64,000 nt of DNA from Leucoraja ocellata (Eukaryota): assembly GCA_036785375.1 (NCBI GenBank), contig JAWMAR010000033.1, positions 7,254,001-7,318,000 on the forward strand, read 5' to 3'. Below, one piece after another: positions 1,252 to 59,123 of this stretch. Made by a program: the position numbers and the translations under genes. The notes beneath the pieces were generated by a model, which was given only the letters and a program-made list of their open reading frames with translations, was not told where the DNA came from and searched no databases. Positions within the stretch are counted from its first letter, which is position 1; each line of letters starts with the position of its first letter.

Positions 1252-1305
1252 GGGGTGGGAGATTGCAACCTGCACGTGGTCCATCCTGCTGTGACGAATG
1301 CAATC
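1252..1305 (+). ncRNA. Putative minimal HDV-like self-cleaving ribozyme
   Basis: P1 GGGGTGG/CCATCCT (G1.U wobble), P2 GATTGCA/TGCAATC, P3 ACC/GGT, 7-nt L3 TGCACGT, J4/2 CGAA, all in the canonical nested-pseudoknot order. Confidence 0.65.
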
Positions 1306-1377
1306 AACATGGCGTGCACAATCAAATAGAACAAGTTGTCCGACAACTTTAGGCTGTGCAAGCCATACGCAAGAAGA
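1252..1377 (+). mobile_element. Short non-autonomous retroelement with 5' HDV-like ribozyme fold and (AAG)n tail, copy 1
   Basis: Flanked by direct repeat GACCTCTGTATGTG (1239-1252 / 1376-1389); homologous to 56151-56290; ends AAGAAGA. Confidence 0.8.
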
Positions 1378-10200: not shown

Positions 10201-13200
10201 ATTCCCAGGTCATCTATTTCAAAAATTAAAGAAAAATTTTTAATCGACATATTTATGTCCAATATATTCCCTTTCCTTCAATGTTTTTTGGCATGCACCA
10301 AAGTCTCTTTGGAAGTTCTTGAAACAAAGTTCCATGGCAATTAGAAGCATTTCCTGAAGGATTCAAGCAAAATTGTTAACTTACGAACATAGCTAAGTGC
10401 CAGTATTTTCTAAGTCAGGACACATCATAGACCAGCCATACAATATTCTCTCATGCGGCACTTTATAGCTGAGGTCACCATAATAAAGAACAAACCCAAA
10501 TTTCTTCTCCTGCTAATCAAGGACTTTGAAACTAAGTGGAACAACTCAATTACTGCACTGGCTGAGATCAACTTACTACAAACCTGCAAAAATCAGGTTC
10601 AATCATGCACACATCAAGTGGTCACTGGAGAAGCTCATACTAATTACTTAAATGTTAAAATAATTACTGCTGAGTCATACTGTAACAAAATGTCAGTTCC
10701 CAACGTAATAGAAAAATGCTGGGAAACCAAAATTTCAATAAGTGAGTTCGGTATTCTGATAAATGCAAGGAATCATGGGATTTGTCAAAGGTCACTTGCT
10801 ATAAAGAAAAAGCAAATGAAGCGCTGGCTGAACAAACTGTGTATAAATTTGTATCTTTATTCATGATATATGTGTAAAATATAATTAATCTGAGGAACGG
10901 GGTTGTTGGGTAGCAGGAGAGTGAGGTGTAACAGCGAGAGAGAAGGGGCAGATGAGAGTGGGAGGGAGACTGGACCGGCAGGAGACATTCTCGGCTGCTG
11001 CGTGCACACAGACCCACACCTCATCTGTAGCCAGGATCGAACCCTGGTCCCCGGCGCTACAAGCATTGCCGAACCGTCACTCTACAATTTACCTGTACTC
11101 ACAATATTAAAAATTATCAGTGTTCAATTGTTTGCAACATTATCTTAGAAATTATTTTTCCAAAAGACAGAGGCATGCATAACACTAATTGGATATAACA
11201 CAACTAATGAATTAAGAAACACTATTTGTAATACGTGGGCTGAATTGGTCAGAATGCAATTTTGATCGACAACTAGAAAACCACCTAAAATACTTTGGAA
11301 AATGACAAGCAGGAAAAAAAAAGCCATCTTGGGAAAAAAGTAGTCTAGGGAGCTGCCATATAATTTCCCCACAGCAATCAGACACCATTAACTCTTAAGA
11401 ACATAGGCTGCTAGTTTTACCACAGGTTACAATGGTCATGGAACACTACAGCCACAAGAACAGGCCCTTCAGCCCCCAATGTCTGTGATAAACACTTTGC
11501 CTGCCCTCACAATATTTAACATTTTTAGCATTCAATTGTTTGCATTATGTTAGAAATTATTTTTCCTAGAGATAACACTAATTGGATATACCAAAACTAA
11601 CAAATTAAGAAACACTAATTGTATTATGTGGGCTGAATTGGTCATAATCTTAATAACGAACATGGAACAGTACAGCCACAAGAACAGGCCCTTCAGCCCC
11701 CAATATCTGTGCCAAACATGATGCCAAGACTATCACATCTTCCTGCATATACCCCATATCCCTGTATATCCGTATACCTATGTAAGTCTTTTAAATGCCG
11801 CTAACATATCTGCTTCAACCACCATTCGCAGCAGACACTCATCATCCTCTGTGTCAACAACTTGCCTCTCACATCTCCTTTAAACTTTGCCCCTCTCACA
11901 GAACTGCAGACTGAATACTGTCCTTCCACAATCCTGTCTTCTAGGAGTAAGCCATTTCCGAATCTATATGAACAAGTCACGATTAATCCAATTAAATCTT
12001 AATCTTCTGGATCAGCCTACCATGGGGGACTTGATCAAAAGCTTTACTAAAACCCATTTAAACATCCGCCACCCTATCATCATCGATCACCTTCACCTCC
12101 TCAAAAAAACATGATTGTCAGAGACACGTTCTAGCATGTACAAAGCCATGCTGATTGTCCCTAATTAATCCATTCTTTTCCAAATGGGAGTAAATTCTAT
12201 ACAGAAGAATCAGAATGTTTGGCACAGACAATGGGGGCTGAAGGGCCCGTTCTTGTGGCTGTAGTGTTCCAAGTTTGTTATTAATTCCTTAGGTTGCTTA
12301 AGCATCTTTAGGTAATCTGTTCCTCTATCTCCCGCTTGCTGGTGGGGGTGCTATAATACAATCCCGGTAGAGTGCTTCACTCCTTTATTTCGAAGCTCTA
12401 CATAAACCGTCTCCTATACCTCTTTTGCCTCCTTCTCGATCGCACCTAAACCATCGAAAGCCCACAAATTTGAGCTGCCCAGCGTTTCCCTCCCGCAACC
12501 ACTTCTCCCACATGGCCAGATCATGGATTTCGACATAGAAATGCTTCCATTGTCACTTGTGCAATGATACTCTATTAAACAATATCACATGGTGATATTG
12601 TTTTCCATACATTGCTTGTACATTCCATACATGCCATGCTTCCATTTTAACTTACTTAGCTATTAAAAACTTTTTCTTTAAAATCCTGCAATGAATCCTG
12701 CTATTGCGCATCTGAAAAACTCTAGCCCCTAAACCCCTTTCTCATTGACAACTGCTTTTAATAACGTGATTTTCTGCTATGCTTGATTTAAGCAGATTTT
12801 ACACACCTTCCAATATTGTTTGCAGTTTACTTGATGTCCTGTCACTGTGGTCCAGCACAGGGCTGCTTCCATTGCAAGTGACATCATCGGAAGGGCTCTG
12901 TTGTGGAAAGATTACATTGACTTGTCTATTCACTGATTCAGTAAAAGTGCGAAAGTCTTTGGAACACACAAAAGTACAATCATTTTGAAATAATTCAAAG
13001 CGGTAAGCCTGAATCCACTGCACTGATAAACAAGATATATTGTAAAAAGAATATTAAACCACAATCTTATATATTTTTTACAATGCGTCACTTCTGTTGT
13101 CGACAGGGACAGAAGTTTCACTTATCTGTTACTTTATACCTCCATTCCACGCAGACCTGAATGTGACCTTCTGCGCTATTCCAACGAGCCCCAGTATAAG

Positions 13201-16200
13201 GAGGAACATGTCCTTGTCTACCTTCCAAATAATATCAAATTCACCACGTACAGGTAACTCAATTTTTCCTGTTGTATTAGAACTAGCGTAGTTCAGGTGT
13301 ATGCAGAAATATTACGTTTTTCGCTTTCAGACACTGCCTGATCTACTGATTATTTCTAGCATTCTCCTTTTGACTTTAGATCTCACCCATAGCTCTGACC
13401 TATATTTTGCAGCTTTTACATATCCCCAATTGATTGTTCTCCCTTTAACTGCCCACATTAGTCAACCAGATAATTTCATAAAAAGTGAAAATCACTTCTG
13501 TGATTCCAACCTCATCCCATCATATTATTTTTGTCCTACCTAGCTCTCCCCACCCTCTGTAATGAAAAGATTATCTTGACTCTGATGGTTAACTTTTTTT
13601 TACTGCAGCTGCTATCCGACCTGCTGATGGTTTCCATCATTTTCCCACTTTTATTTCAGATATCCAGTTTGTTTATAATTGGCATCTTAAAGAATCAATC
13701 CGAATAAATTAAAAACAAAAAAAATAATACTTTAATACTTAATCCATTGACCAAAGACAAACACAGCTGGAAAAAAACCTTGCAAAGTGGGAACTTGGAT
13801 AACTAAAATTTTCCATAGAACACTGCCGTATTGCTATTTTATTTGCAGGCAGATGATGCGAGCCATTCATTTATGATGGTGGTAAAATATTTCTATTATT
13901 TGTCATTCGGAATTTTTAGTTTGAATGTTCCAAAATGTTAGATATGATTTTGTCTGCACAGTGATGTTTTTTTCAAAAAGACATGCAAAGATTGACCCAG
14001 TTACACTGATATAGAGAGTTCTGTCATGTATGTGAATAATGATAATGGTTATACATAAATAGCTTTGGGGACAGCTATAAAATGATCTTACTTCTCTGGA
14101 ATGCAGGATGACTAACAAGAATAAGAATAACTTCATAAACAGGTGGAAAAGTTTTAATTGATTATATCCCTTAAAAGCATCCATTAGAACTGTAAAATTA
14201 GATGGAGAAAAATGATCTATTTGAAAAATATGCTCTTGCCAACCGCACTTATACCCGAGTTAGCAGCTCTGAAATGTTCAAATAAAAATGAATCTATTAC
14301 AATATTGCATGAATAATATGAAATAACTAATATGGTTTGAATAACAACCACAATACGGTTAAGCAGCAACTGGACAGTCGTAGAATGAGAAGCAGTAATA
14401 CAAACAAAAAAAGTCAGATATGCAGGGAGATGTTAAGACGTTCTTGCATACTACAGTTCCAAATATTGTAATGTAAAAAAAAAAAAACAGAAACAGCAAA
14501 TGCAAGAAATTGAAAAAAAAAATGCTGGAAACACTCAGCAGTTCTGATACACTGCTGCTCGGGAATTTTGTCCTTCAAGACGATGGTTGAAATTCAGGAT
14601 GAATTCTTCATTACATTTTTTTTTTTTTGGCTATTCTTTTTTAGGTTTAGAAAATAATGGGCAGCATTTGTCAAAGTGTCTTATGTGCTCTCCCAGCAGA
14701 CACGAGATCTAATGATGTTCTCTTGCATTAAAGGGAAGGAGTATGTTGTAACCAAGACTACTTGCAACTGGTTTCCAGTTATATTCACAGACTGGTGATA
14801 TGTAGGCCAAGATTAAAGAGACATGGGCTTGCCTTCACAAAGGCGACTCATCATCATATGCACTTGATCCTAGAGGTTTCTTAGAAAGAAGCACTCAAGT
14901 GAAGATATTTCCTGTTTTTAAACACAGATACCAGGTATGCAATTATTGAAAAGGCAAAATGGATGCCAAATCACACAGATCCAAGAACAAGCCTTTTCTA
15001 TTTTCTCAAGTGCTTAATGTTGGTCTAATCACCTCTGCAATGGAATCTCAAAAACATAGCCCAAAATCTTTTAGTCTACTCAGGTTTTGCTGATATGAAA
15101 ATGAACCCTCAGCATTTTTCAAACAAAGCATTTTGCTGCTTATGACGATCCACTTTGTGAGTAAAACTATTTCCATTAGAGAGTAAGCAAATCAAACAAA
15201 CTCTAGTTGTCATAAGTGGGTAAACATGAGCAACAAGTCGGTAACAAGACAGATTGATGAGTGGTCGGAAGTGCACATTTTCATGGCTGTGGTACATCAG
15301 CACCAGCTCTTCCTCCACTCCACCCTGCCTTCCTACCTAACAAGGAAAAGGAGCAGGGTACAGATGTGAGGAGCCAATGGTGAGCATCACTCTTATGCAA
15401 CCTAGCAGCAGGTCAGAGCTCACTACACAACAGCAATGTGTTTCATTCAATGATGAGGAATATATGTAGGATTAATTTTAATAATATTGTTTTTCTTGCC
15501 CATAACATATGCAATTACATGCTAAGATGTAATATATTAATTTAAATTCCAGCAGATCCATCAATAGCTTCAGGTAGAATTTTACTGTAATCGGTCACAT
15601 GCAATGTTAAAGTTGAACTTTAAAGTAGCCATCTTAGCACCTTGGAGCTGCTGCGGGGTTACAAAAAAAAAATTTGATGATCTTTCTAACCAACAGTGTG
15701 ATTCCAAATACCTTTCAGCTTCATTTTTTTTTTAATTCTGGGATCCCACTTGTTTGATCAATCTGAACTCCCAATATGAATATGAATTACCGGAAAGAAA
15801 AGAAAAAGCAGGCATGTTTACCTTTTTCTCTTCCAGACACGTTTTGGTTTTTGCCCTTTGTTTTAGAGCAGAGGGAGGACTATCACTGAAAGTGATCTGC
15901 GGATGTACTGGCATTTCCCCTCTGCGTAGAGGTGTATTGGATGGTAACCTCTTATCAAACAGCTCGGGCGTCAGCTCTCCGCCAAAAGTCACCTTTTTCT
16001 TTTGTGTCAGTTTCCTGCAGCTTGTAGACAGAATGCAGTCTTGCTCCTCTGTAGGAGTAGAATCTAAAATACAAGAATTACAATAATATGTTCTTGCCTT
16101 AGCAAATCAACCAATTCCTAACCAAAGATTTTGTTTTGTAAAAGAAAGTCAGTGCCAGTGTCCAATTAAAGGCAACTGACAATATCACAGCAGGAACACA

Positions 16201-19200
16201 AAGATAGGTCAGAAGATTGCATGGCTGAAGGGATGGGCACTTAGGAGATTGGTTCAAAAGATTATGGCCCTTGCAATCCAGAGTAAGTTAGCACACAGAA
16301 CCCAAAACAGGCTTGGAAACAGAATGTTTTTTAAAAATGTGTTTGCAAATGGATGTCTATGATTAGTGGCATCCTACTAAGTAAAGAGGTCATTCTCTAT
16401 CGTTATAAAACCTTGATCAGACCTTAGCTGGAATACTTCCTGTATGCAGTTTTGGCCACAAGGCTTTAGGAAGGATGTGATAGCATCTTGGAATACACAT
16501 ACTTTCATTTGTATACTAACAACATCCATTAACAAATAGGTGTACCCAAGCACCATATCATGCATCCTCTACCTACCTATTTGCCATATACCAGAGAGGT
16601 GTGGCAGTTCTGGAGCAGAATTATTATTGTCATCCTGAAATGTGCCCATGAATGCTGCCATCTTACTTTTCATCATTGAAACTCTCTGAGATTCCTAATT
16701 TAAAAAAAAAAAAATCACACAATTATTTAATTAGTATAATTTAAAAAAAATTATTGGAGCATTGAGCAATAGTTATTATATACATATTATAATACAGATG
16801 AGTTTGTTGCTGTTCTTTTTCTACATTGTTTTCCAGACAACATAAACTGCAGAAGGAAATGGAGTAATTGAATTTCTAGCGATTATTCAAATGTACCTGC
16901 ATCTTCTGTTTGGCAATATAGCAAATAAGACTATTGGTCTCTGGGGATCCTCTGGCTCCAACAGAAGACACTCTCCGTGAGCATATTTTTCTCCCTTCAG
17001 AGAGTATTCCTGCAACACAAGTTTGGGAAAATATCAAGTAGATCTTGGGCAGCAAAATGAAGCAGCAGTCTTAACTTGATGTGTTATTTCAGAGACAAAA
17101 GGCCCAAACACAAACTTTCAAATTTGTCCAGAAAAGACATTGAAGGAGTAAGTACCCTTCCAATCAGTGATAATCAGTAATATGGTCACAAGGAAAGAAG
17201 ACGCACCTAAACAAAACATTGCAGATGGTTAAAAAAAAGTTATGTTTAAATTTTTAATTATTCAGCAAATTGTATAATTAGTGGTCCCTGTTGTGTTACC
17301 TTTGACAGATGAAGATCAAATAATCAAACAGAGTCATTAATATTCCCAGTATATAAACGTCTTTGAGTTTATAATCCTTAAATTTAAGAATGGAAATCTG
17401 GAGGACCATAAAACCAACAGTCTAGTCTGGCTTAGTTTTTTCTAAAGGACACTGCAGTGGAACGCTTCCTTTGTAAAATAAAATCTACCTGCTGTCTTAC
17501 TGGATGAGCAAGCACAATATTTGCAGTTTATTTTCTCTTTAAATAATTATTCGAGCGACGACTTCATAATCTACAAGTCAATAACATTATTATTGAGCTG
17601 ATTGTACTACAGTTCGTTTTAACCAAATAATTCCTTTCAAGGAAACATCTTAGAAATGTTCCAAAGCACTCATAGGTTTATTGGAAGGGTGATCAATTGG
17701 TGAAACAAAATGCTCACGGCACCATTAAAAACAGTTAAACAAATACCATTAATGAACTTCTCAACTAATTTTACACTATTATTGAATAGTAATTGCAGGA
17801 TTACAAGCCTTGTAATGTTGCAGTGTACAATGTTCAATGTCCTACATGGAAACAAAACTTTAAAATATTTATTACCAATAATAATGAACGCCTTTCTCAC
17901 CAGGGACTAACTGTACAGAACGTTTTTCCTTCTATTATTTATTACGTAAAATAATATGTGTGATTGTGTTTAGAATTTGTTTGGTTGTTTTGTTGTTCCG
18001 TGAGCATTGCCACTTTCATTTCACTGCACATCTCGTATGTGCATGTGACAAATAAACTTGACTTGACTTGACTTGATTGAATATCCAAGCCCAGGTAACA
18101 TTCAGAACAAGGAAACCTTGCAGTGCAAATGACCTTACTCTCATCCCAAATAACACAATCCAAGGACAAGATCTGTATTTTTTTTCTTACTTCAGATCAG
18201 TATTTTACTACCTGCTGAATTCAGGCTAAACGGTTCTGCTGTCATTTTCCACTGATTTGCAGCATTCATTGAAATATCCAGTGAAGGGGGTGGTGTTTTT
18301 GTAGCACAGGATTTGGATTGCTCCTTGTCCACATTCACTAAGCAGTCATGATGTCGATATGCAGTATTTTCAGAATCAATCTCGCTGATAGTATCATAGT
18401 CACCAGGTGTTGCTGGAAAGGAAGTCCAGGTCTCACCATCTCCACCAATTGCTTGAACTGTGGGTTCGACAGAAGAAAAAAGACAACCAATCTTTACCAA
18501 CCACTACAGATGGTGTGAACAAATTTAAAAAGACCGTTACCAGGTAAAAACAACTTCAATAAATTAAAATGTTTACATAATAGAAGTTGTGGAATTGTGT
18601 TCAAAGTTCGGCCATAGCCTTTATTAAACTGCAAATGAGCATAATGAAAATTGGCCACTATACCACTCGGATAGGGAGGAAGAGGTGGGAAAAAGAGATA
18701 ATGCTGCTATACATTAGTGTAACTTCTACAAATACATGTTTGGTAAAGATAGGTTAGAATCAACAGGAGCTCTCTGTAGCAAAATAACATTCAAATGCAC
18801 TGCATAGTATTTTAACTGAGGATACTTAGGGAAAGTTTTTGAGACGACTGATGCCCAAGTAAGAGCATCCCGATAAGATTCAGCAAGCTCCAGATGTTAG
18901 GAAAGATGTATAGGTAATCGGGTTTCATCCAATTCGTTGATACCCATTTATTTTCAGAATTTTCACCACCCCTATTTTACAGACCAGCTCCCCCCATTAT
19001 CCCACCAACCTACCCGGCTGTTCCTTTAATGAGGGCATTTCATCTTTCAGCTATGTTCTTGGTGTTCATCGTATTGTAAGCGTGCATGCAAAACTCTACT
19101 CTTATTGAAAATGCAATTAGATCGATACAGTTTACCTTCAGTTTCCCAAGTAGCAGATTTACAAGGAAAATTAGGTGGTGTTCTGTCTTCAGAAGGTGTT

Positions 19201-22200
19201 CGGTCTTCAGAAGGCAAGTCCAATTCTGTGGGTGTTATAACTGGCACATCCACATTGGCTGTTTCACAGGTTTCTTCTTGATAGGCAGACAATTGTACTC
19301 CAAGCTGAGAGTTCACTAGTTTGGTGAATTTCAACATTTTCCTTTCATTTAAAGTTTGCACAGGACTGTGCCTATTATTTGTAACTGATGGATGTTTAGG
19401 AGAGAGCTGGTCTGTTGTTTGATCTAGGTTTTCAACTGATGATAATTTTATTTCACGTAAAGTACCAGCTCGTGATTTCCTTTTACCTGTTAATAAGGAA
19501 AGTTATTTCTTTACATTACTAACAGCAATTGCAATAAATTAATTGAATAGTTATTCCAACATCTTTGATCACTTGACTGCCAGTAATTTACTGCACTTTA
19601 AAACATGAAGGCTTTGCACAAATGCACGTTTTTTATACAGTATTAACAATATTGAAGAGTTGGATTTTCTTTGCATAAATGAAGTGTTGCTAAAATAGTA
19701 CATGCTTTTAGCTAGATAACATTTGGACAACAATCTGCAGCCTTGGACTCTTAACCAGAAGTGGAAACACTGGTACCCTACAGCGCAGCTTAGCTTAGAG
19801 AAAACCCATTAAGGAAACATGCAGAGGCTGCCTGTGAGTGATAGTGCTGTCAGTGCAGTTGTTCAGCATTGAGATGCAGGGCTGAAGACGAACCCCTGCC
19901 AACGCGCGCATTTACTGGAGAGCAGCAGCAGATGCTTCAGATGTTGCTAAATCGCCCAAATCCAACGGTCTCTTTCATCATGTCCTGTTGGGTATGGTAG
20001 AAGCAACGGTTGCTTCCTCTGTTTGGCTGCACATCTCTCCCCAGCCTGGAGATTTTCCACGGTAACAAACATAATGGTGGTTGATGGCCATTGAGGTTGT
20101 CAGAGATAGATTCCGTGGGCTGGGGAGAGATGGAGTGCCATACAAATAGATGAGAGGTGGCTGCGGGAGGTAAAAGCCAGCAGGGGCTGCAGGTCATGGT
20201 GTTGGAACATGGGATAGTAATGAACTAAATACTACCTTTGATTACTTTCAAAAGGAGCTGATGAGAGAGATTGTAGGATTTAGACAGTCAATCATAATGG
20301 AGCAGGTACTACTGCCCAAGCCCATCAAATACCAGCCCTCTCATTGCTTCTATAGAAACGTAGAAAATAGGTGCAGGAGTAGGCCATTCGGCCCTTCGAG
20401 CCTGCACCGCCATTCAATATGATCATGGCACCACTCCTACTATGACTCATTCCACACCAGGCCGTAGAAGTGGTAACCTCACAAATCAGCTCATTGAGGC
20501 AGGAGCACCAGCAGAGGGCCAAGCCTTCGATCAGTTGCCGGCAGTGTTGTGCACCATCAGGGAGGTAGGTGTCCACACCAGGCTCCCAACACATCATTGC
20601 AGTCAGTGGCTGATTTCAACGATCACTTAGTGCTGATTCCACTGACTCTCTAGTTCCCAAGAATGAGTGGGTAGTCTAAGGAGTTGGGACCAATGAGAAA
20701 TGTATTTATGCAGAGACTGTAAATCTTTGCAATTCTATTCCTAAGGGGGCACTGGATGCTCAATTGTCGTATATATTCAATTAAGGGGGAAAGCATATTT
20801 CTCTACATTGATATAAGAGGATATGGGAACATTGTGGACTTCAGATACATAAGCCACGATATTGAATTCAGATCAAACTGCTGCCTGGCCTATTCTTACT
20901 TGGATTCTTATGAGCTTACCAGGTACATTCCTCCTTGCTCTTCTTTCCTTGGGGTGAGGCACTTGCAATATAAAATCCTTCAAATGTAAAAATAATACAT
21001 TAAAATGTACTCCAAACAAATACCACTATGTGTTTAACAACTACCTCATGTTCTCACTTGTTTGCAACTGTAAAAGGTACAAGGGCGCAGGAAACAACTC
21101 AATGTGAAGACACTGAATGCTCCATTCATTATTACAATGCAGGAGGCCATTCAGCCCATACTAACAGAAACAAGGCAATTAATAAATGTTAGTATTTGCT
21201 CTCATATACATGATTAAATATGTCAATGTTTGATATATAAAATATTATACACAAACAGCCCTTGGATAGGATTTGTACAATTATCTGCCCATACCTGTAA
21301 TAATTTGGGCACAACAATTGCAATGAAACTGTTACCTGTCTTCACGCTTCATTCCGATTGAATACCTTCAATATGATATTCATTCTTGGAGCGTTCTAAT
21401 GCCAGTTCCCTGAAAACCATATTTTGGTGATATCAGCAGGTTGGAAAATAGTAGGCAAGCCCAAGCTTGTTCTGGTTTAAACCATCAAATTCCCTATCTC
21501 TGTACCAATCAACAATGTGATTAAGAATACAGAAATAGGTAGTGAAAAAGGCCAATTTATTTTCCTATCACTAGCCCGGATACCCTGAAAATCATTATGA
21601 CCAGATAGAGAACATTAGGCTCAGCATATACCAGGGATGATGAACCATGGAAAACCTCAAATCCTATGGTGTGCATTGCTCAGTACCATCATAGTAATGA
21701 AGCTACTCACAGGCTCAATCTTTTAATAAAGACTCAACCTTTAAAATCACTCATTTAAAAAAAAAAAAAAGACATACCTGTTCTGCTACATATTTGGCAG
21801 ATCCTAAAGTCAAGTTTTCAAAATTCTGGTCCTCAAACCTGCACAACCAATTAAACAAAAATAAGTACTTTTTAAATTAAAAATCAAAGTAACCTAAATT
21901 CTAAAACAAAACTTCAAATCTTTCTGCTGCATCTGTCACTTTATCAGGTAAACCAAACATGTTGGACCTCCTTAATCCTCAACTATCCATGCAATTTCCA
22001 AGATGATTAGCAGCATCATTGAAAACAAAATGGCAATGACTTTGGATGAAGAAATAACAGATTTGTAGATAAACTGCTTAATCTACAGTTCTTTTTTTGT
22101 GTATGATCAAGATAAAACAAAAATGTTTTTGGCTATTTGTTCAACTTCAAAGCAAATCCTGACTATTTGATATCCACAAACAATATATAAAGTTTTTGTG

Positions 22201-35800: not shown

Positions 35801-38800
35801 AATGGACCAGTTTTTGAACTGTGAGACTATTAATAATGCTTACTTTGCTCCTTTGCCGTGTTTTTTCTCCTTCTTTACCATATCTGTGCTGGCAGCATTT
35901 GTCAGATCGTGTTCATCTGTTGCAATGATGTAGTTGTAAATACCACGATTGAATTGACCGATGATATGACACCTGATGAAGTACATTGATAAGTAAGGCT
36001 CCTTTACAACGCAGCTTCTCCCACCACCCTCCCAACCCACACCACAGACTGTCATCTGTTCCACACAGCAGTCTCTTAACAAAAGAGCTGACTGCAATCT
36101 CTCAGTCCTGGGCTAGGCTGGGAACAGCAAAAGGTAAAAGATTGAAAAGAAGTTTGAACCCAGGGGTCACTGTCTCAAAATGAGGGTTGGGCCATCTAGA
36201 ACCGAAACAAGAAGCTGTTCATTCTCTCAAGATTCGGTGAATCTTTGGAACTCTGCATGGCTATGGAGGCTCGGTCACTGGTTGTGTTCAAAATAGATCA
36301 ATAGATCACTGGATATTAGAGAAATCAAATGACATAGGAATAAGGGTAAATGGTGGTGATGTAGATCAGCCATGGTCCTGTTGAATACCCAGACCAACTG
36401 GAGAAAACATATGGCCATGAGTCTTATTCTTTACAAGCTTCCCGCCTCTTCTCTAGCCAGAACTACAGCTGGCACAGTGCTGGGCTCTCTGACAAAGGAA
36501 TAAAAGCCAAATTGCTGAAGATTCCCAGTTGGTCATGTAGCATTTATGAAGAAACAGAAATTCTTCAGATTGATGATCAGTTATGTAGCAATTGTGTTGT
36601 AATTTTGCAAATTCAACATCTGTGGTACAGTACTTTATTTTTCATGCCCTTGTTGCGGAAAGGTTATGGGGGGTAGGGGGCGCCGCCGAGCTCTGTGGTG
36701 GACGGAGGACTGTCGGGTTAGGTGTTGAGGCACTGCATTCAAGTTCCGGATAGTGGAACAATCAGTGAACATGGTGATTGCACAAGAAAGCAAGTTGAGG
36801 TAAATGATCGTCATAATCATATTGAATGGCAAGGCAGTCTTAGGGAGATGGATAACTGCTATTTCTATTTTATCCGGTCCAATCTCCCCCACAACACACA
36901 ATATGGCACTCTGCATCTTCCAGTCACACAACTCAGAACTTGGGTTCTAGTCTGATGGAACAATGCAAGTATTGGTGCATTCAAAGCTAATTTCATTTAA
37001 TTCTTCACATATGCATTGGTATTACTCTGTGCATACACAAGACTTTTTTCCCTGTGGAACTTAAGGTAGGAATAAGGAAAGGTAGGTCAAAGGAGAAAGA
37101 AAGAAACATAATTGGAAAAAAAACAAGAAGACAGCAGTGAATGTATCCAAGATAAGCCATACCTGGAGTGGACTGGTAGCTCTGAGTTTAGAACGCAGGA
37201 GAAGATGCTGAATTGTTCCAGGAATAACTTCAGCCGGTAACATCTGCCGATGGAATTCACAAAAACAATGGTCTTGCCGCGGACAAGGGAAAGCTTGAAT
37301 AACGTGTAGATCAGCAAGAACTTCTCCTCCTCCTCACAGTTTATGTGGTACTGAGTCAACTGGGAGCTGTCCGGAAGTCGAGACTCTTGCAGCTTCAGAA
37401 TCACCTAAAGGATACGAGATTACAGTACAGCATCATGTCCCAGCCACGCAGTACTATGCAAGACAAATACAGGCACACTAGAGAACTGATATTCTCTTAG
37501 TATATTCATAATTGGCAAGGAGTTACGACTGTCAGAAAATAACATTTGCTTCCCCATTTATAAATTCACAAATCCATATCATATTCACCAGATGGATATT
37601 TCTAAAGCTCTTGTGCAATATATCCACCAGAAGGATATATCTAGGGATATTTCAAAACCTCAGGAAGCCTAAGTATCTCAAAGATATACAAATCAATCTA
37701 CATTCATAAGGCCCCACAAACAAGTAGAGCTGGAAGTCCAACTGAGTCCACATCAACACAAGTGGCGAAGAAACTCAGAGGTTCGGTCAGCATTTGCGGA
37801 GGGAATCGTCAGACAGCTTTTTGGGTTGTGACCATTCTTCACAAGAAACATCGTCTGTCCATTCCCTCCACAGATGCCGCCTGACTCAGAGTTCCTCCAG
37901 CGCTTGTGTTTTGTTCAAGATTCCAGCATCTGCATTTGGTTCAGCATCAAATTGGCTTAAGGCCAGGTGAAACAGTCCATTACAACACCCTGCCCCTATT
38001 CATAAAACACCAATCAAATCTTTATTGTTCATTTGAAATGATGAGAGTGCCTTATTCTTGAACTTAGAAAGAATGCCCAGATCCAAGCGTAGTAGTAAAC
38101 CTCGGTTCAGTTCAGTTTAGTTTATTGTCACATGTACCAAGGTTGCATGATATCCAAAGATAGACACATTAAGCTGGAGTAACTTAGTGGGACAGACAAA
38201 TTCTCTGGAGAGAAGGAATGGATGATGTATTGGGTCAAGTCCAAAACGTCACCCATTCCTTCTCGCCAGAGATGCTGCCTGTCCCACTGAGTTACTCCAG
38301 CATGTTGTGTCTATCTTGGGTTTAAACCAGCATCTGCAGTTCCTTTCTACAGATTTGCATGCTATCCATTCAGCAGAAAGAAAATAGATTACAATCGAGC
38401 CATTTACAGTGTATAGAACATGATAAAGGAATAACATTTGCATTTAAGATCCTGGTTCATCAGTATTACCACCAGTAAAAAAAAGGCCAACGACAAAATG
38501 TCAAGTTGTTTTAGAAGAATTCTTACCGGGTTATGAAGCACTAGCTCTTTCAGTGCCTGAACATCTTCATTAAATGTGGCTGACATCAAGAATGCCTGAT
38601 AAATCTTTGGGAGATGTCTGCAGTGGATTAGAATAAACCTGATAAGTACATATATCATACTCTGCGACATTGCTCTCAGGGTGCAAATGTTAGATCTTCT
38701 GTGACAATAAAGAGTTAGTTGATACAAAGCAAATAAAAGGTTCCGTATCCAGCATTCAGTTATCAGACCACAGTACGAATTGTGATGCCAATGTAAACAT

Positions 38801-41800
38801 GTAAAGAACGTTACAGATTGTCTTGGGAAAATGACATCAGCATTCCTACACAGATCCTTAAGGTGGATGATTGGCAAAAGCAAGAACACTTTCAGGAATG
38901 ACCTTGTTGTATAATGTTTATTGGTGCTTGTAGACCATGTGAGAAAAAGCATATATTAACCGGGGCTCAACGGAGGATATTTTTGTCTCCTAATTAAAAG
39001 GTTGATAGTTCACACACCAGAAAACTGAGCATAAAAATCTAGATTTACACAGCGGGAGTGCAATACTATTGAAGCCCTGTTCAGTTAGCAAGATGGACAT
39101 AAAGATTTCATGACAATTTTTAAGAATGCCAGTAGAGGGAACCTGGCGCCCAGGCAATCTTTTTTATTCTATACTCAACATTATTCCAATACAAATTATC
39201 TTGTCATGATCACTGCTGTTAATGCGTTTGTTGAGTGCAAACTCATCGCTATATTCCAAACAATTAATCACACAAAAACCTCAGCAGTTGTAAAATAATT
39301 AAAGGCCTTTTATATTAATTTGTTAGATTTGTTTTGCTTATTATTTATTACCCATGTGTATTTACAGGTTTGTTATAGGTAAGAATTTAATTGTAGTTAT
39401 TGGTACACATGACAATTAAACACTCCTGACTATATAAATACATAGCAGGCATTTCTCCCCACTCAAAATTTACAATGTCATTTATTATTTCTTGGGAACT
39501 GCTCTTAAATTAGTACCTCTAATTGTTCCATCTGCATCAGACCTATAACTAGTTGTTGCGATATCTTATATAGTCTATTTATGGGACCAGTCATTCAGCA
39601 GATAAAGGCCTTTTGGCCGACAAGGTTCATGCTGAGCATCAAACACCAATTTGAACAAAACTATAGGGGAGGCACAATGATGCAATGGTGGAGTTGCTGC
39701 CTTACAGCACCAGGGACTCTGATTTAATCCCGACTACGAGTGTTTGTATGGAGTTTGTACGTTCTCCCTGTGATCACCACATTCTAAAGGCGTATAGGTT
39801 TGTAGGTTGACACAAAACGCTGGAGTAACTCAGTGGGTGAGGCAGCATCTCTGGAGAGAAGGAATGGGAGATGTTACAGGTCGAGACCCTTGTTCAGACT
39901 GAAGAAGGGTCTCGACCCGAAATGTCACCCATTCCTTCTCTCCAGATGCTGCCTCACCCGCTGAGTTACTCCAGCATTTTGTGTCTACCTTCGATTTAAA
40001 CCAGCATCTGCAGTTCTTTCTTACACAAGTTTGTAAGTTAAATGGCTTCCGTAAATTGCCCCTGGTGTGTAGGATGTGAAAATGCCATAACATAGAACAT
40101 TGTACGAACGATTGTTGGTCGGCACAGATTCGGTGAACTGAGGGGCCCGTTTCCACGCTGTATCTCCAAACAAAATTAATCCAATTTCAATTAAATTGAA
40201 AGTCATAATATTGATACTGAATAATCAATGGAAGAATCTCGTAAAGTAGTTCACACAATAGATGTGGCCAAACTGAAAGACAAAATACCGCAAGCAGATG
40301 GAAATTCAGTCAAACCAAATCACAAATTTTGTTTTTTACCCCAAAAGGTTCTTCAAGTCATTTTCAAATCCAAATGAGAAGACCAGATCTGCCTCGTCAA
40401 TCACAAGCATTTCCAGTGATGTACAGAGACTCAGGGTATGTTGCTCCAAGTGCAGCAGAACGCGGGAAGGTGTGCCTATTACAATGTCGGGCTTCTCCAT
40501 CAATATGGGCCTGAAGGAGAGAATCAGTACTGAGAAGGTCCGTGCCAACGGTACAAAAAGAGAAGCTTCACAGATAAACATTAGTTATTTTTCTACCTCT
40601 GTGCTGATATATCCGCCTGTCCCGAGATATCAGCAACTCGAACATCCCACGTACAGTAGGATGTGAGTTGTCGGATCATCTGCTGTACTTGCTGACCCAG
40701 CTCCTTTGTGGGAACCAACACAAGGGCTCGCACCGCCTGCTCACAGGTGGACTGAGGAGAGACACAGGGGTTATAGAAATTCCAGCTCCACTACAGGCAT
40801 CTCTGACACTCTGCTCAACTACAAACTTGGTTCCTGCACAGACTTCACATTGAGTTATAAGTAGACTTCCTTGTGGCAGCAAAAACATTAAGCATTGCTA
40901 AAATTGCATACTACTTAGAGAATTCATGCTGCATTTGTATTTAGGTGGCACAGTTGCTGCCTTACAGTGGCAGAGACCAGGGTTCGATGCTGACCACGTG
41001 TGCTGTCTGTACAGAGTTTGTACATTCTCCCTGTGACCGTATGGGTTTTCCCTGGCGCTGCGGTTTCCTCCTACATTGCAAAGACGTACAGGTTTGTAGA
41101 TTAATTGGATTTGATCAAAATCGTAAATTGTCCCTAGTGTGTAGGACAATGCTTGTGTACAGGTATCGCTGGTCAGAGTGGGTCTCAGTGAGGCAAAGGG
41201 CCTGTTTCTGTAGTTTATCTCCAAACTCTAAACTCTGAGGTAGAGCAATCAAGTGTAAAGTCCAAGGTTGTAGTAGTATTCTGGTAAACAGCGCAACCAC
41301 TAAGGGGAGACACAGCAACTGCTGGGATGGGAAAGTGCAATTCATAATAAAGTAACTTTGGGCAGCTGCAATTCCCTCGTTTCCAAAATCCCACTCATTG
41401 CCCGTGTACATGTTTGGAATTTAACCCTGTGCATTGAAGGACCAAGTGTAGGAAACACACATACAAGTCTGCATGAACTCTCAAAATCAGACCATGAAAA
41501 CTTAAACGGATGGCGACGACTTAATGAGCAAATAGGGCGGATGCAGGAAATTACCTTTTTTGTGTTGAGAAGATGCTCGATGATGGGAATGGCATACGCT
41601 GCAGTTTTCCCAGACCCAGTTCGTGCCCTGGCAAGAAGATCTTTTCCCTCCAATGCCAGAGGAATGGCTTTTTCCTGGATTAGAGTTGGCTGGGCCCAGT
41701 TCAGTTTAGAAATTGCCTGATTATTTGTATTTTAGTGGGTGGAGAAAACACACATGGTTACACAACATTTGGCCATACTGTTCTAAGTTTTCTACTTTTC

Positions 41801-42802
41801 ATCTTAATGCAGCTCTACACATCTCTCCCTTCAGCATCTCCCTCGATCCTACTTCCCAACCCACCACCGGCATCCTATTACTCCTTTCCAACATCACTAT
41901 CTCTGGGAAACAGGCTCATATCTTCCAACATTACTTCTCCAACATCACCCTCACCCTTTTTAATTCCCATCTTTCGGCACCACCATCCTCTATTCAGCAA
42001 ATGTCCACCACCTCTCCCCATTTGTTTTCCATCTCCCAACCTTAATGCACTGTAATGAACTGCTCGCACTCTCTGCCTTTCTCCAAGTAGCCACACCTCC
42101 TTCCCGCTAGCCCTTCCCCACAAACCTGACCTCAGATCTAACCCCCCCCTCCCCCCTCCCTCTAGAAATGTTTATTTTCCCAGCACACACGTGACAGTGG
42201 CGACAAAGATCCTGTAGCTCGCTGGTGGCAAGAAACAGTTCTGAGAAACAAAAAGTCACAGGGGATAAGAAATGCAACACTACAAGGACAAAATTCACCC
42301 TCAGGTATGCTCCAACCCCCCCCCCCCCTCCTCCTCTAACCCCCCCTCCTCCTCTAACCCCCCCCTTCCTTTCCCTCTCCTTCCTTCTCTCTCCTCCACT
42401 CTCCCACCCAACCCAGTCACCCCTATATTCTCCCCTTTTCTTCCCTCCTCTTCCCTCCGTCGTTCACTCTCCCTCCCTCTCCCCACTCCCCCTGCCACCC
42501 TCTCCTCCTTCCCATCACCCCATCCCCCAACCTCCCTCCCTCCCCCACTCCTCTCCTCCCTCCACCCCTTCCTTCCCTCTCCCACCCTCCACTCCAACCT
42601 TCACTCGCACAACTCTCTCCTTCCCTCCCTCTTATCTCCATCTCCCCTTCCTCTCTTCTACCTTCTCCTTGTCCACCCTCCCCCTGTCCCCCGTCTCTCT
42701 CTGCCCCCTTCCCTTCTCCTCCCCAGGGCCCCAACAGCGCGGTACCTGCAGCAGCCGCTCCTCCAGTCCCATCTCGTGGAAGCCTAGTCCCTCCGCCGCC
42801 AT
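29805..42802 (-). CDS. DDX56: ATP-dependent RNA helicase DDX56 (DEAD box, Dbp9 orthologue), 14 exons, 551 aa
   Basis: Exons 42802-42746, 41716-41555, 40751-40597, 40510-40340, 38617-38527, 37404-37163, 35972-35844, 34146-34033, 33800-33706, 32773-32700, 31957-31868, 31626-31521, 30888-30791, 29876-29805 (1656 nt, in frame, all GT-AG). Motifs: Q motif, [34 protein letters not shown]; C-terminal [13 protein letters not shown]. Confidence 0.97.
30015..30540 (+). mobile_element. Decayed CR1 RT fragment interrupted by a Penelope-type fold-back repeat
   Basis: [26 protein letters not shown] (CR1 RT motifs); terminal-repeat pair at about 30173-30325. Confidence 0.65.
30791..30888 (-). CDS. DDX56: DDX56 exon 13
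   Basis: (I)[21 protein letters not shown]..; donor AAG|GTGAGT. Confidence 0.85.
31521..31626 (-). CDS. DDX56: DDX56 exon 12
   Basis: [35 protein letters not shown]. Confidence 0.95.
31868..31957 (-). CDS. DDX56: DDX56 exon 11
   Basis: [30 protein letters not shown]. Confidence 0.95.
32700..32773 (-). CDS. DDX56: DDX56 exon 10
   Basis: [24 protein letters not shown]. Confidence 0.95.
33160..33326. mobile_element. Fold-back Penelope-type terminal-repeat insertion with 14-bp duplication
   Basis: About 65-bp inverted arms; TAATTAGATTTGGT at 33146-33159 and 33327-33340. Confidence 0.8.
33706..33800 (-). CDS. DDX56: DDX56 exon 9
   Basis: [31 protein letters not shown]. Confidence 0.93.
34033..34146 (-). 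CDS. DDX56: DDX56 exon 8
   Basis: [37 protein letters not shown]. Confidence 0.96.
34842..34869 (+). ncRNA. Minimal hammerhead ribozyme core within a Penelope-type repeat
   Basis: CTGATGA-A-GGGTC TC GACCC-GAAAC-GTC: conserved core boxes, helix II hairpin, palindromic ACGT helix III; helix I poorly paired. Confidence 0.55.
35844..35972 (-). CDS. DDX56: DDX56 exon 7
   Basis: [20 protein letters not shown]...KHGKGAK. Confidence 0.94.
37163..37404 (-). CDS. DDX56: DDX56 exon 6
   Basis: [19 protein letters not shown]...[21 protein letters not shown]. Confidence 0.96.
38527..38617 (-). CDS. DDX56: DDX56 exon 5
   Basis: [30 protein letters not shown]. Confidence 0.96.
39670..40175 (+). mobile_element. 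V-SINE split by a fold-back Penelope-type insertion (39810-40025)
   Basis: SINE head and V-domain at 39670-39809 resume at about 40029; imperfect duplication GTTTGTAGGTT/GTTTGTAAGTT. Confidence 0.7.
40340..40510 (-). CDS. DDX56: DDX56 exon 4
   Basis: [16 protein letters not shown]...[15 protein letters not shown]. Confidence 0.96.
40597..40751 (-). CDS. DDX56: DDX56 exon 3
   Basis: [33 protein letters not shown].. Confidence 0.95.
40945..41235 (+). mobile_element. tRNA-derived V-SINE (HE1-like), near full length
   Basis: B box GGTTCGATGC, V-domain GAGTTTGTACATTCTCCCTGTG..CGGTTTCCTCC..AAAGACGTACAGGTT, tail AAACTCTAAACTCT. Confidence 0.8.
41555..41716 (-). CDS. DDX56: DDX56 exon 2
   Basis: [41 protein letters not shown]. 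Confidence 0.97.
42310..42725. repeat. Polypyrimidine/polypurine low-complexity tract in DDX56 intron 1
   Basis: About 415 nt almost exclusively C/T on the plus strand. Confidence 0.9.
42746..42802 (-). CDS. DDX56: DDX56 exon 1 (start)
   Basis: [19 protein letters not shown]; Kozak AAGATGG; donor CAG|GTACCG. Confidence 0.93.
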
Positions 42803-42924
42803 CTTTGCTCTGGATGACGACACGGACCCCGTTCCACAGCGCCCCACAGAGGCGGGGAGGTGTCCCTGCAACTCATTGTCTGAAGAGAACATGTAATTGT
42901 CTGAAGAGGGACAACAAGAGAGAC

Positions 42925-43335
42925 AGGTACACAAAAAAGCTGGAGAAACTCAGCGGGTGCAGCAGCATCGATGGAGCGAAAAAATATAGGCAGTTGTGAA
43001 ACTGTCTCTGGAGAGAGGAGGAGAACTTCTTCAAAGTAGGCATATCTTGAGGAGATATCGCAGTGGAGTAGACAAAGTGTTCAAGAAGGAACTGCAGATG
43101 CTGGAAAATCGAAGGTACACAAAAAAGCTGGAGAAACTCAGCGGGTGCAGCAGCATCTATGGAGCAAAGGAAATAGGCAACGTTTCGGGCAGAAACCCTT
43201 CTTCAGAGACATTTGTGTTTAAGAGGGAACTGCAGATGATGGAAATTCGAAGGTAGACAAAAGTGCTGGAGAAACTCAGCGGATGAGGCAGCATCTATGG
43301 AGCGAAGGAAATAGGCAACCCTTCTTCAGACTCAC
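42925..43335 (-). repeat. Three tandem Penelope-type pseudo-LTR copies
   Basis: Repeated GCTGGAGAAACTCAGCGGRTG.AGCAGCATC.ATGGAGC. Confidence 0.8.
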
Positions 43336-47506: not shown

Positions 47507-47556
47507 GTCGGGAACGGCGACGTATTGCGTTTTGTGCCTGACCGTCACGTATTACA

Positions 47557-47931
47557 ATGCCTGAAGAAAAGAAAGTGGTTTCGAAGAAAGGCGCTAAGAA
47601 AACGTTAAATAAGGCTCCGGCCAAAGGCACCAAGAAGCGGAGGAAGGTGAGGAAGGAGAGTTACTCCATCTACATCTATAAGGTGATGAAGCAGGTTCAC
47701 CCCGACACCGGCATCTCCTCCAAGGCCATGAGCATCATGAACTCGTTTGTGAACGATATTTTCGAACGCATCGCCGGCGAGGCTTCGCGCCTAGCCCATT
47801 ATAACAAGAGGCTGACCATTAGTTCCCGGGAGATCCAGACCGCCGTGCGTCTACTTCTGCCCGGGGAGCTGGCCAAACACGCCGTGTCTGAAGGAACAAA
47901 GGCCGTGACCAAGTACACCAGCTCCAAGTAA
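47557..47931 (+). CDS. H2B: Histone H2B, intronless, 124 aa
   Basis: [88 protein letters not shown]. Confidence 0.99.
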
Positions 47932-55143: not shown

Positions 55144-58100
55144 CTGTAAAGAGGGAGAGGGACAAGAATTAGCGAGCCCTGGGATGGTCAGGTAGTAACA
55201 GCACACGAACAGCTCAAGGATGATAATGCTGCCTGTGTGATAGGTTAAAACAGCAGATAAGAGAAATAGGAAGGTACCCTGTGGTACTTGGCCTCCAGTC
55301 TTGCCATTCTCGAGGTTTCTTCTGCTGTTTGGCCCAATGATGTCCAGGGCTTCCTGCTCCATCTGGGTGAGATTTAGAATGGAGGCTGGCCGTTCCTCGC
55401 AGCTGGTTCTTTTCCTTCTTTTGTGTGCCAACTTCTCCTGCAGAAATAGTGGGAGTGAGTTAGTGTTTCATTGTTGCAACACATTACCCAGATGAGCGAA
55501 CCAGCTGCATGCAGAAGGAATGACGCCAGTTAACTGAGGATACACAAAAGATTATAGAGTGGAGATCCGCTCTATAATCTTTGGTGTACATTGCTGTATC
55601 ATGTGCATGAAAAAAAAGCTTCCCTTTATTTACTATCGTTTGACTCATCTTTGCAGCTTAACAGATTCTGTGATGCAAGAAGCAGATGTCCAATATGTGT
55701 GCAGCATACTCTATAATGACAATGTGATAGTGACTAGACACAAGGAACTGCAGATGCTGCTTTACAAAAAAGTAAAAAATTGTTGGAGTAATTCAGTAGA
55801 TCAGACAGCATCTCTGGAGAACATGGATAGATGATGTTTCGGGTCAGACTCCTACTTAAGATAATTACTAGATCGCTTTTCTTCAAAGTGCTGTTAATCA
55901 TAGCGGAAAAGGGAAAAGCTTCCAGTCATAACTCACATCGGTTCCAAAGCTTAGGTAGATGAAAATGCTGGAGAATCTCAGCGGGCGAGGCAGCTGAGTT
56001 TCTCCAGCATTTTAAATTACCTTCGATTTTTCCAGCATCTGTAGTTCCTTCTAAAACATTGTTTCCAAAGCTTTGTCATCTTTAAGCTTGACTATAGAAA
56101 CAGATACCAGGCTGATTGCCCATTAAAAAAAAACCATTTAATGTATTTGAGGGGTGGAAGATTGCAACCTTCAGGTGGTCCGCCCGGTTTCAACTAATGC
56201 AATCAACTCGACGTGCACAAACGGAAGATCAAATAGAACAAGTTGTCCAACAACTTTAGGCTGTGCACGCCACACGAAAGAAGAAGAAGAATGTATTTGA
56301 AATCATCAAAACCTCTTTGTTTTGTCTCATTCCCAGTTCTGATGAAGGGTCTTTGTCCAGAATCATTAACTGTTATTCATTCCACAGATGCTACCTGATT
56401 TGCTCCACCTTCCACCGCCCCCACTTTACCACCTTCATCGCTCCATCTGGCTTTACATTTCACTCCCCCTCTACTTAGATAAGACACCCTTTAGTTTTCC
56501 TTTTGATCTCTCGCCTTTGTCCACCCATCTCTCATTTACCGGCTATAACTTGCCAATCTTTGTTCGCCCCCTCCTCTTTCCAGCTTTCTCCCCACTTCTT
56601 TCATCAGTCTGTAGAAAGGTTCATACCCAAAAGGTCATCTGTCCATTCCATCCACAGATGGTGCCTGACCCATCAAGGTAGTCCCGCAATTTATGTTTCA
56701 ATCAAAATTGTTCCTTTTGCCATCTTCACTATCAACACTGAAATCATTTGTCTCAGACTTTCTGCTGGCTCTCAGTGCAATCCCATTCCCCCACATATCC
56801 TTGCAACCTTCCTCTCTCACATGGCCATCAACTCCACCCAATTCCTCTACCATCTCCCTACACTTGCGGAAATTTAGTGACCAATATTGCTGCCAACTTT
56901 TGGAGATTGCGTGAAAACCAGATCACCCAAGAGAAACTGATCATAGGGAGAGCATGAATGTTCTTCACAAATAGCACCAGAGATCGGGATTGAACCTGTT
57001 TTGTTGCAGATATCAGACAACGGCATTATCTGTATATTACTGTCGCTCCCTGCAGTCCTTATCCCACGATACATCAAATCCAATTCACACATTGTGCTTG
57101 ACAATTCAAATGAATGCTGGTTCAGTAAAATTTGACTTTAAAATTTCTCATCCTTATTTTCACACCCTTCATTGGTGTTACTTCTTCACCTGTTCTACAA
57201 CCGCTAAAAGATCTAATCTACTATTCTTACACTCTTGTACTCGAGCATGATTGCACTTATGCATGTCTTTTTACATACAGTTCAGTAAAATAATTCTATG
57301 CACAAGTCAGTGAATATTTCTTAAGGCAGAGATGGATAGATTTTTGATTAGTACAGATGTCAGAGGTTATGGGGGAAGGCAGAAGAACGAGGTTTGGAGG
57401 GAGAGATAGACCATGATTGAATGGCAGAGTACACATGATGGGACGATTGGCCTAATTCTATTCCTATCACTTATGACCTTATGACCTGAAGAAGGAATTA
57501 GATAAATATATGGTGAAGACAAATGTACAAGGCTACTGAGGAGATGGTGTAGGATAAGATGGCACTGTAATAATATTGATTTTTTAAATGTTATCTTTGT
57601 GAATTCCATTTACAGGCCTATTATGCTGTAAGAATTTCATTATTCTGTTTTCAGAACATATGACAATTAAAAAGCTTTACTCTTGGTAGAAAACTAGTTC
57701 AGAAATTACCAGCTAGTTCATCTGCTGGGTTCCTGTAACTGTTCTACAATTATATAAAGGAAGGTTACTATAAGCATTTCAAAAGGCATTTAAGGTGAAG
57801 TTTCAAAATAAACTTATTAGGAAACTGGAGCCAACATGACAAAAACAGCGAAAGCAAGCAAAAGTGCTGATTAATGCGAACTGTTGCCTTTCAGAATGGA
57901 GTGGGAAGTGCATTTCCCTCCAGGGGGGAAACTGTAGTTAGAAATAGGTTTTGTCGGTTAAGAGCAGGCTGGAATAATGGGTCAGTTCAAACAGTTCTGT
58001 AGGGCATGTGGACCCACGGAAATTGTATAATTTATTAGTTTGATTTATTATTGTCACATATACCGAAATATAGTGATTTTTTGTTTGCATACTATCCAGT

Positions 58101-59123
58101 CAAATCGTACTATACAGTTACATTCAAGCCATACACAAGTACAACAGGTAGTGTAAAGAGAAAAATACCAGAGTGCAGAATACATTGCTACAACATTATA
58201 GCTAAAACAAAAGTGTAGGTAGAAAAAGTGCAAAGGCCATAAGGGGGTAGGTTGGGAGATCAGGACTACGTCCTTAGTTTATGAAAGGGCTGACAAAAAT
58301 GCTGGAGAAAAGAAGGGCTTTTCAGGACTCAACAGCAGAGAAGAAACTGTTCCCAAATCAGGTGGTAAATGCTTTCAAGATTTTGTATCTTCAACCCGAC
58401 AGGCGAGTGGGAAAGAAAGGGTGACCAGGTGCAAATGATAGAGACAATGAACCATTGATGATGGTTTACAAAAATAGACATAAAGTGCTGGAGTGACTCA
58501 GCAGGTCAGGCAGCGTATCTGGAGGCCATTGATAGGCACGTTTCAGGTCGGGATAAATAGGCCTTGATTATGTTGGCTGCTTTCCCAAGACATCGTGAAG
58601 TGTAGATGGAGTCAATGGGGGGTGGAGCTGGTTTATGTTATGGACATCATCCACAATCATGCAGGGCATGCATCTCACACCCTTGGGATACAGGGGACAG
58701 TTCTGAAGAAGGATCTCGTCCTGAAACGTCACCCATTCCTTCTCTGCACATATGCTACCTGTCCCGCTGAGTGACACCAGCATTTTTGTGTCTACCTGCA
58801 CCTGCAGTTCTGAAATCTGTCGACACCTAACAGGTTGCAAGTGTCAGACTGTGGTCCAGTGGGGTTGACCACCTGGCGTCACCCAGGCTTACCTTAGCAG
58901 TCCAGGTCAGGCCATTGAACTTCTTGCGGCATTGCAGCCAAGTCTTGGGCACCTCACTCTTGGCGTTGACGCTGTGTGCCACCTCGATCCAGGCCTGGTG
59001 CACCATCTCCCTGGGCACACTCCGGCCCTGGGAGGGGAAAAAGACCTCCCTGCGAGCCCTCACCTGCTCCAGCAGAACCTGCACTGCTCTGTCACTGAAG
59101 CGCGGAGTCCGGGGCTCGGACAT
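54296..59123 (-). CDS. Myb/SANT-like DNA-binding domain protein (NAIF1/MYPOP/MSANTD-type, Harbinger-related), 3 exons, 412 aa
   Basis: Exons 59123-58893, 55437-55278, 55143-54296 (1239 nt, in frame, GT-AG). N-terminus RTPRFSDRAVQVLLEQV...QAWIEVAHSVNA..KTWLQCRKKFNGL is a trihelix Myb/SANT-like signature. Kozak GCAGCCATG; AATAAA at 54164-54159. Confidence 0.85.
55278..55437 (-). CDS. Myb/SANT-like gene exon 2
   Basis: EKLAHKRRKRTSCEERPASILNLTQMEQEALDIIG; acceptor TTTCTGCAG. Confidence 0.82.
56151..56204 (+). ncRNA. Putative minimal HDV-like ribozyme (copy 2)
   Basis: P1 GGGGTGG/CCGCCC(G), P2 GATTGCA/TGCAATC, P3 ACC/GGT, L3 TTCAGGT, J4/2 CTAA. Confidence 0.6.
56151..56290 (+). mobile_element. 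Short non-autonomous retroelement with 5' HDV-like ribozyme fold and (AAG)n tail, copy 2
   Basis: TSD AATGTATTTGA (56140-56150 / 56290-56300); same 5' start as copy 1; tail AAGAAGAAGAAGA. Confidence 0.82.
58893..59123 (-). CDS. Myb/SANT-like gene exon 1 (DNA-binding domain)
   Basis: 77 codons; donor AAG|GTAAGC. Confidence 0.88.

Follow-up and report, generated by a model that had tools for sequence, protein, structure and literature searches.

A short insertion starting at position 56151 of the 64,000-nucleotide stretch of DNA analysed here (the window) begins with what looks like an HDV-like ribozyme, and a related copy (copy 1) lies in the same window. An earlier note had taken the 56151 copy as a second, independent support for the fold. 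The questions raised by this locus are what kind of element the insertion is, whether its head is a ribozyme, and what gives different copies the same 5' end. Our reading, to which we assign a probability of about three in four, is that the element joins the first ~72 bases of a Vingi-like LINE of 3 kb to its last ~40, and that its head is likely a P4-less HDV-like ribozyme which is predicted to be crippled in the 56151 copy.

The insertion in the window

The coordinates of all parts are collected in Table 1. The 11-mer in front of the insertion recurs directly behind it and is distinct from the duplication of copy 1, as the earlier note had stated. The duplication length is to be read as 9-11 bp, since the first two A's are perhaps part of the (GAA)n tail (microhomology).

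Table 1. Parts of the insertion at 56151, the intron carrying it, and copy 1 (window positions).
Feature	Position	Strand	Remarks
Whole insertion	56151-56289	+	139 nt, G1 = 56151, between 11-bp repeats
Left target-site duplication, 11 bp	56140..56150	+	sequence reading
Right target-site duplication	56290..56300	+	repeats the left 11-mer
Minimal HDV-like head, 54 nt	56151..56204	+	published descriptor (PMC6326823) and comparison
P1	56151-57/56180-86	+	G1 opposite G in the 56151 copy
J1/2	56158-59	+	
P2	56160-66/56198-204	+	
P3	56167-69/56177-79	+	
L3	56170-76	+	G at 56174, family C
P1.1	56172/56187	+	
5-nt loop replacing P4	56189-93	+	
J4/2	56194-97	+	putative catalytic C at 56194 (= C44)
Remaining Vingi-A 5' UTR	56205..56222	+	single-ORF ATG ~6 nt further on in the LINE
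Junction segment, no LINE match	56223..56249	+	gives the 5' arm of the hairpin
7-bp hairpin	56240-46/56250-56	+	
Vingi-A 3' end: last ORF codons, stop, short 3' UTR	56250..56289	+	young-subfamily tail variant
(GAA)n tail	56276-89	+	
Intron 1 of Myb/SANT-like host gene	55438..58892	-	carries the insertion in antisense
Copy 1	1252..1377	+	older subfamily, 13-bp duplication, 8-nt internal deletion, U21G and U38C

The two copies share 80.6% identity, and in both of them the duplication directly adjoins the same G. P2 and P3 are retained as claimed, with 7/7 and 3/3 pairs identical in both copies, and J4/2 is CTAA in the 56151 copy and CGAA in copy 1, with an invariant C. The G opposite G1 (56186, nt 36) and the changed L3 base (G at 56174, nt 24, where the family has C) are both present in the 56151 copy. 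The P1 strands differ in the way described and keep their pairing, but each change affects one side of the helix only (A/G at nt 32 distinguishes subfamilies, and nt 33 C>T leaves a G-U pair) and gives no proof of the fold. Thus the HDV-like fold was correctly recognised, whereas the argument from a second copy does not hold: both are members of a single family that has more than 6,000 copies. Retention of P2 and P3 in two copies is expected by descent, as P2 and P3 are identical to those of the 56151 copy in 32/50 copies and C44 is kept in 45/50 (ungapped heads picked by the 3' end).

At window positions 1272 and 1289 of copy 1, U21G and U38C turn the second pair of P1.1 from U-U into G-C. 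At the six pairs tested in 141 heads, no other change on both sides occurs. A G:C at the second pair of P1.1 reportedly supports CPEB3 activity (PMC9901934).

That the 56151 copy lies within the first intron of a Myb/SANT gene, in antisense, is borne out by exon 1 (58893-59123, minus strand) with its GT donor, by an AG acceptor before 55437 and by a Myb_DNA-bind_5 domain (E 2.8e-12). Being antisense to the host gene, the copy cannot cut the host pre-mRNA, and the genomic copy is most likely a neutral passenger, itself inert. Other genes of the window are presumably a CDCA2/Ki-67-like gene (exons 5816-19502, minus strand), a DEAD-box helicase (37090-42949, minus strand) and an intronless histone H2B ORF (47542-47928, plus strand).

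Copies made of the two ends of a LINE

Exact pattern matching in the assembly (3.44 Gb, duplicated haplotypes included) gave 6,080 matches for a 28-nt pattern of the 3' end and 6,237 for a 29-nt pattern of the head, with 0 matches for the reversed control patterns. Twenty random 10-kb regions contained three full copies and one LINE tail; tens of thousands of copies in the genome are plausible, a number which is loosely bounded. A young copy at L407 and L414 (G000 C1, 19.26 and 19.41 Mb) has multiplied within a ~2-kb tandem array with identical flanks, and this slightly inflates the pattern counts.

The distribution of 5' ends was determined on 85 loci picked by the 3' pattern alone, with the C1 tandem arrays excluded, which were merged to 71 insertions. 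Of these, 57 start at nt 1-4, 7 at nt 5-54 and 7 later; the value 57/71 is approximate, as the merging joined at least L358 with two probably distinct loci and retained a deleted haplotype (L049). The duplication ends between -1 and +3 of G1 in 41 of the 57, further upstream in 3, and in 13 none was detected. Positions -12 to -2 before these full-length copies hold mixed bases, so that no upstream sequence common to the copies extends beyond G1, in agreement with what the earlier note had expected. Its use of the identical 5' ends against random truncation was right as to a defined end, although an internal promoter would also give one. The base at -1 is T in 24, G in 19, C in 10 and A in 4 of the 57 full-length copies, and T in 65/99 copies of a set requiring four G; this T-rich and A-poor position perhaps reflects second-strand priming.

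Read as protein, the tail of the element gives the C-terminal codons of an ORF, and a pattern search built on this found 1,424 places. Some of these are LINE 3' fragments that terminate in a Cys/His motif. The near-full LINE copies (L221/L222, L223, L235; 2.8-3.7 kb) carry the same head and the same tail inside duplications, and their 5' ends (L221-L223, L235) align with nt 1-72 of the element. The parent is ~3.1 kb long and has a single ORF with the ATG just after the head; Pfam domains APE and RVT_1 were found, and on the pieces scanned there was no RNase H match. By its architecture the parent (Vingi-A) fits the description of Vingi elements as compact, with a single ORF, APE and RT, and without RNase H (PMC13708176), and we refer to it as Vingi-like. 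Among the family A frames found none is an intact Vingi-A ORF; all are broken.

Several different deletion junctions occur among the short copies. Furthermore, in some LINE copies a 3' fragment is joined to a head that lies inverted (5' inversions; L123/L160, L149, L153), which means that LINE RNA carried the head. Many of the fetched Vingi-A LINE copies start at nt 3-13, not at G1, and none of 28 LINE loci picked by the 3' end (L133-L160) has more than ~930 continuous bases in common with another insertion. The two-ended structure, the parent, the duplications and the common 5' end are seen directly in the copies: the 5' and 3' ends of the LINE are joined, duplications are present, and the head is not that of a small RNA.

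Searching for a partner with PF14529 led to a two-ORF LINE unrelated to the head, and an RTE partner, which the (GAA)n tail had first suggested, was abandoned after the Vingi-like parent had been found. L081-L110 contain a young LINE with two ORFs (open frames of up to 1,268 aa), which we take to be Nimb/I-like.

The fold of the head and its sister families

The fold tested was a nested double pseudoknot of 7+7+3 pairs plus C22-G37 (137/141 heads), and it is present in the family; P1 of the 56151 copy has 6/7 pairs. G1-Y and the C of L3 are fixed in the published descriptor (PMC6326823). The G1-pyrimidine pair is found in the family, where nt 36 is T in 5,973/6,237 pattern matches, and is absent from the 56151 copy (G36). 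Likewise, the conserved U20, C24 and G25 of L3 are found in the family, with A or G at nt 24 in just 109/6,237 pattern matches, and the 56151 copy deviates (C24G). The catalytic C and then two A in J4/2 are present in the 56151 copy. J4/2 is CUAA in the young subfamily and in the parent, compared with CRRA of the descriptor, and its second position varies among families. P4 is absent in family A, with 7 nt between P1 and C44 versus 27, 45 and 27 in families B, C and D described below. Within nt 1-54, the majorities of four sequence groups (subfamilies) disagree at just three positions, nt 8, 32 and 45, at each of which a change is tolerated. The copies decay neutrally, and all ribozyme features are kept in 19/50 (ungapped heads picked by the 3' end).

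A run of the descriptor over 1.155 Mb of fetched loci gave 55 matches (52 in family A, 2 at sister LINE 5' ends and 1 stray), against 0 in shuffled DNA (5 x 200 kb). Rfam gave no ribozyme match, RF00622 included, on the window and four loci with family copies, and plain folding, a model that does not extend to pseudoknots, was not unusual (z 0.15 and -0.12). Judged by sequence comparison, the family A head is likely a P4-less HDV-like ribozyme with putative cleavage.

A protein search led to sister Vingi-like families at 36-45% identity. Full-length copies of families B, C and D begin exactly at HDV-like folds with a real P4 (27-45 nt), and their P1, P2 and P3 pairs differ from those of family A, changed on both sides. 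Because of these two-sided changes, the support for the fold comes from the parent LINE together with the three sister families. Family B has one P1 mismatch, and family C starts with A and has P2 in an offset register. With the CPEB3 model RF00622 (cut-off 35 bits), 3/3 family D loci passed at 56, 53.5 and 50.4 bits, family B scored 24.7 bits, and family C gave no match in the same scan. The family D loci with passing 5' ends are L423, L290 and L432. The same HDV-like fold, as read from sequence, heads four Vingi-like families. A fifth Vingi-like family (L276, L284, L289) has no full-length 5' end among the fetched copies.

An ordinary Pol III SINE with a head merely resembling a ribozyme would likewise be short, of high copy number, with a defined 5' end and without a run of four T; presumably nt 5-16 and 37-46 can be counted as weakly like A and B boxes. 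However, ARAGORN found 0 tRNA, the head comes from a LINE 5' UTR, and the sister LINEs keep the fold and not the sequence, which makes such an origin very improbable.

The divergence from the majority is 3-5% for Vingi-A, 1.1-1.4% for families B-D and 2.7-3.6% for the main short subfamily. The tail of the young subfamily (window 56273-56277) has two changes, both matching the family D tail (3' ends of L290/L423). It is possible, given small samples, that the young subfamily switched its partner LINE to family D.

The CPEB3 ribozyme resembles the older subfamily of family A in that the L3 of the Rfam consensus, the GU after P1 and CGAA match. It differs in being single-copy, sense in an intron and conserved, and the family A head has no match to the model. 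In the literature searched, with Repbase, Dfam and patents outside the search, we found no Vingi ribozyme and no link between CPEB3 and Vingi; the family may be catalogued.

The double variant, the 5' end and known systems

The 56151 copy belongs to the young subfamily, which has a non-CpG divergence of 0.9% (median) and 1.9% (mean, n=12), and differs from the majority of this subfamily at nt 24, 36 and 42. U36G would remove the cleavage-site pair. By C24G, ACC would pair with nt 24-26 and displace the native P3; the predicted probabilities are 0.65-0.70 for the alternative versus 0.02-0.05 for the native P3 in the 56151 copy, and 0-0.04 versus 0.17-0.51 in three typical copies. With the G1-pyrimidine pair gone, a fixed L3 base changed and P3 predicted to be shifted, the 56151 head is predicted to be crippled, a probable impairment that the earlier note had suspected. 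That note did not have the Vingi-like parent, the lack of P4 or the occurrence of both damaging changes in three other insertions.

Among the 6,237 pattern matches the single changes are at background, with ~55 for G36 and ~37 for G24 (extrapolated from the first 100 listed). G36 as the mark of a large subfamily was rejected: the first 100 of 264 non-T matches are 21 G, 26 A and 53 C. The double variant C24G+U36G is found at four places, all in the young subfamily, with different flanks and different duplications and all starting at G1; two of the four also have A55G (nested). By chance 0.33 would be expected, and the probability of at least three others is 0.005, in a post hoc test with small numbers. 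The simplest reading is that the double variant marks a small source lineage that would have stayed mobile.

In two related organisms, contigs entering from the left flank cover the first 29 nt of the head and agree with the 56151 copy at 56174; contigs of the same organisms also run from the tail into the right flank. This suggests that the 56151 insertion is shared and older than the species, and since no other letter stands at 56174 in the two relatives, C24G dates from their split or earlier. Among the joints listed there was no empty insertion site in the relatives, whose contigs reach at most 29 nt into the element, below the 31-nt threshold of the comparison. The age of C24G speaks against the alternative that gene conversion or recurrent mutation after insertion produced the double variant, which would then be uninformative on the source element. 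That each change occurs singly at background rate, that two of the four insertions are on contig C33 and that the comparison was chosen after the 56151 copy had been seen are in its favour, whereas four different flanks and duplications, the restriction to the young subfamily and the nested A55G are not, and we consider it unlikely. If a mobile lineage is accepted instead, it implies either residual cleavage or a 5' end independent of cleavage, e.g. from an internal promoter, and cleavage may not be the sole source of the 5' end.

In the proposed mechanism, a sense copy within a longer transcript would be released at G1 by self-cleavage. A Vingi protein would bind the 3' tail and insert the RNA by target-primed reverse transcription, and hence each new copy would start at G1. 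The source of the double variant would have kept some activity, or would owe its 5' end to another route, for which an internal promoter like L1Tc Pr77 is the likely candidate.

In the polyA RNA run X22 from a related organism, 6% of which was read, 766 reads fell on the window, nearly all from other copies. Read starts showed no pile-up at G1, and 203 reads pass through G1 into flanks. At 56174, 247 first mates were on the plus strand versus 136 on the minus strand; this skew, which is not ribozyme-specific and may be dominated by few loci, would point to an excess of antisense RNA in case the library is stranded. None of the RNA datasets listed had the 56151 locus.

The lack of a pile-up would also fit an internal promoter in the head as the determinant of the 5' end, the P4-less fold then being a relic or a protective or protein-binding structure. 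So would the four C24G+U36G insertions, two of them with a further common change (two generations), that start at G1 with abutting duplications, and in L1Tc/NARTc promoter and ribozyme are described within the same 77 nt (PMC3383444). Yet none of the four subfamily majorities and none of the three distant sister families has lost the catalytic positions, G36 and G24 each stay at background, so that impaired heads expanded little, and the double-variant test is post hoc. A promoter of this kind in place of a ribozyme is distinctly unlikely, and release by self-cleavage remains our preferred reading.

A wider picture, which we regard as possible rather than probable, would join these parts. Thousands of natural P4-less self-cleaving ribozymes would have been spread by a mini-Vingi whose head is both ribozyme and internal promoter, the crippled C24G+U36G form would have continued to jump with precise ends, the youngest subfamily would have moved to family D after its own parent died, and the mammalian CPEB3 ribozyme would be a domesticated Vingi 5' end. 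If true, the range of 5' HDV-like ribozymes would come to include Vingi-type LINEs, P4-less minimal ribozymes would be known beyond phages, at high copy number in an animal genome, and the CPEB3 ribozyme would gain a concrete candidate source. The copies of the family also form a natural mutational library, in which the double-variant sub-lineage could show whether a precise 5' end requires cleavage. Gene-writing platforms make use of Vingi UTRs (PMC13708176), and there a 54-nt self-trimming head would, if true, matter.

Among known systems, NARTc/L1Tc and RIME/ingi of trypanosomatids are alike in being non-autonomous elements that join both ends of an Ingi-group LINE, in an HDV-like fold from +1 and in dispersed insertion (PMC4035085, PMC3383444). 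The present family differs from NARTc/L1Tc by its animal genome, its thousands of copies and its 54-nt head without P4, a helix that L1TcRz is described to have; moreover, the family A parent has no RNase H match, and ribozyme activity is putative here. The R2 SIDEs of Drosophila also combine a ribozyme head with a LINE 3' end and are freed from a host co-transcript, but they are described as rDNA-specific, rare and longer (R2Dwi_SIDE, 529 bp) (PMC3414825). Bipartite non-autonomous Vingi elements (derivatives of Vingi-1_EE) are likewise internal-deletion derivatives of a compact single-ORF APE LINE (PMC5786205). Minimal HDV-like and theta ribozymes share the lack of P4, the short J1/2 and a length of about 50-55 nt; as reported they occur almost only in gut phages, beside tRNAs (PMC10879173), whereas the family A fold heads an animal retroposon with full-P4 sisters in the same genome. 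The well-supported family described here thus resembles NARTc/RIME and R2 SIDEs, and what appears to be new is the Vingi-type parent, the P4-less head and the animal host.
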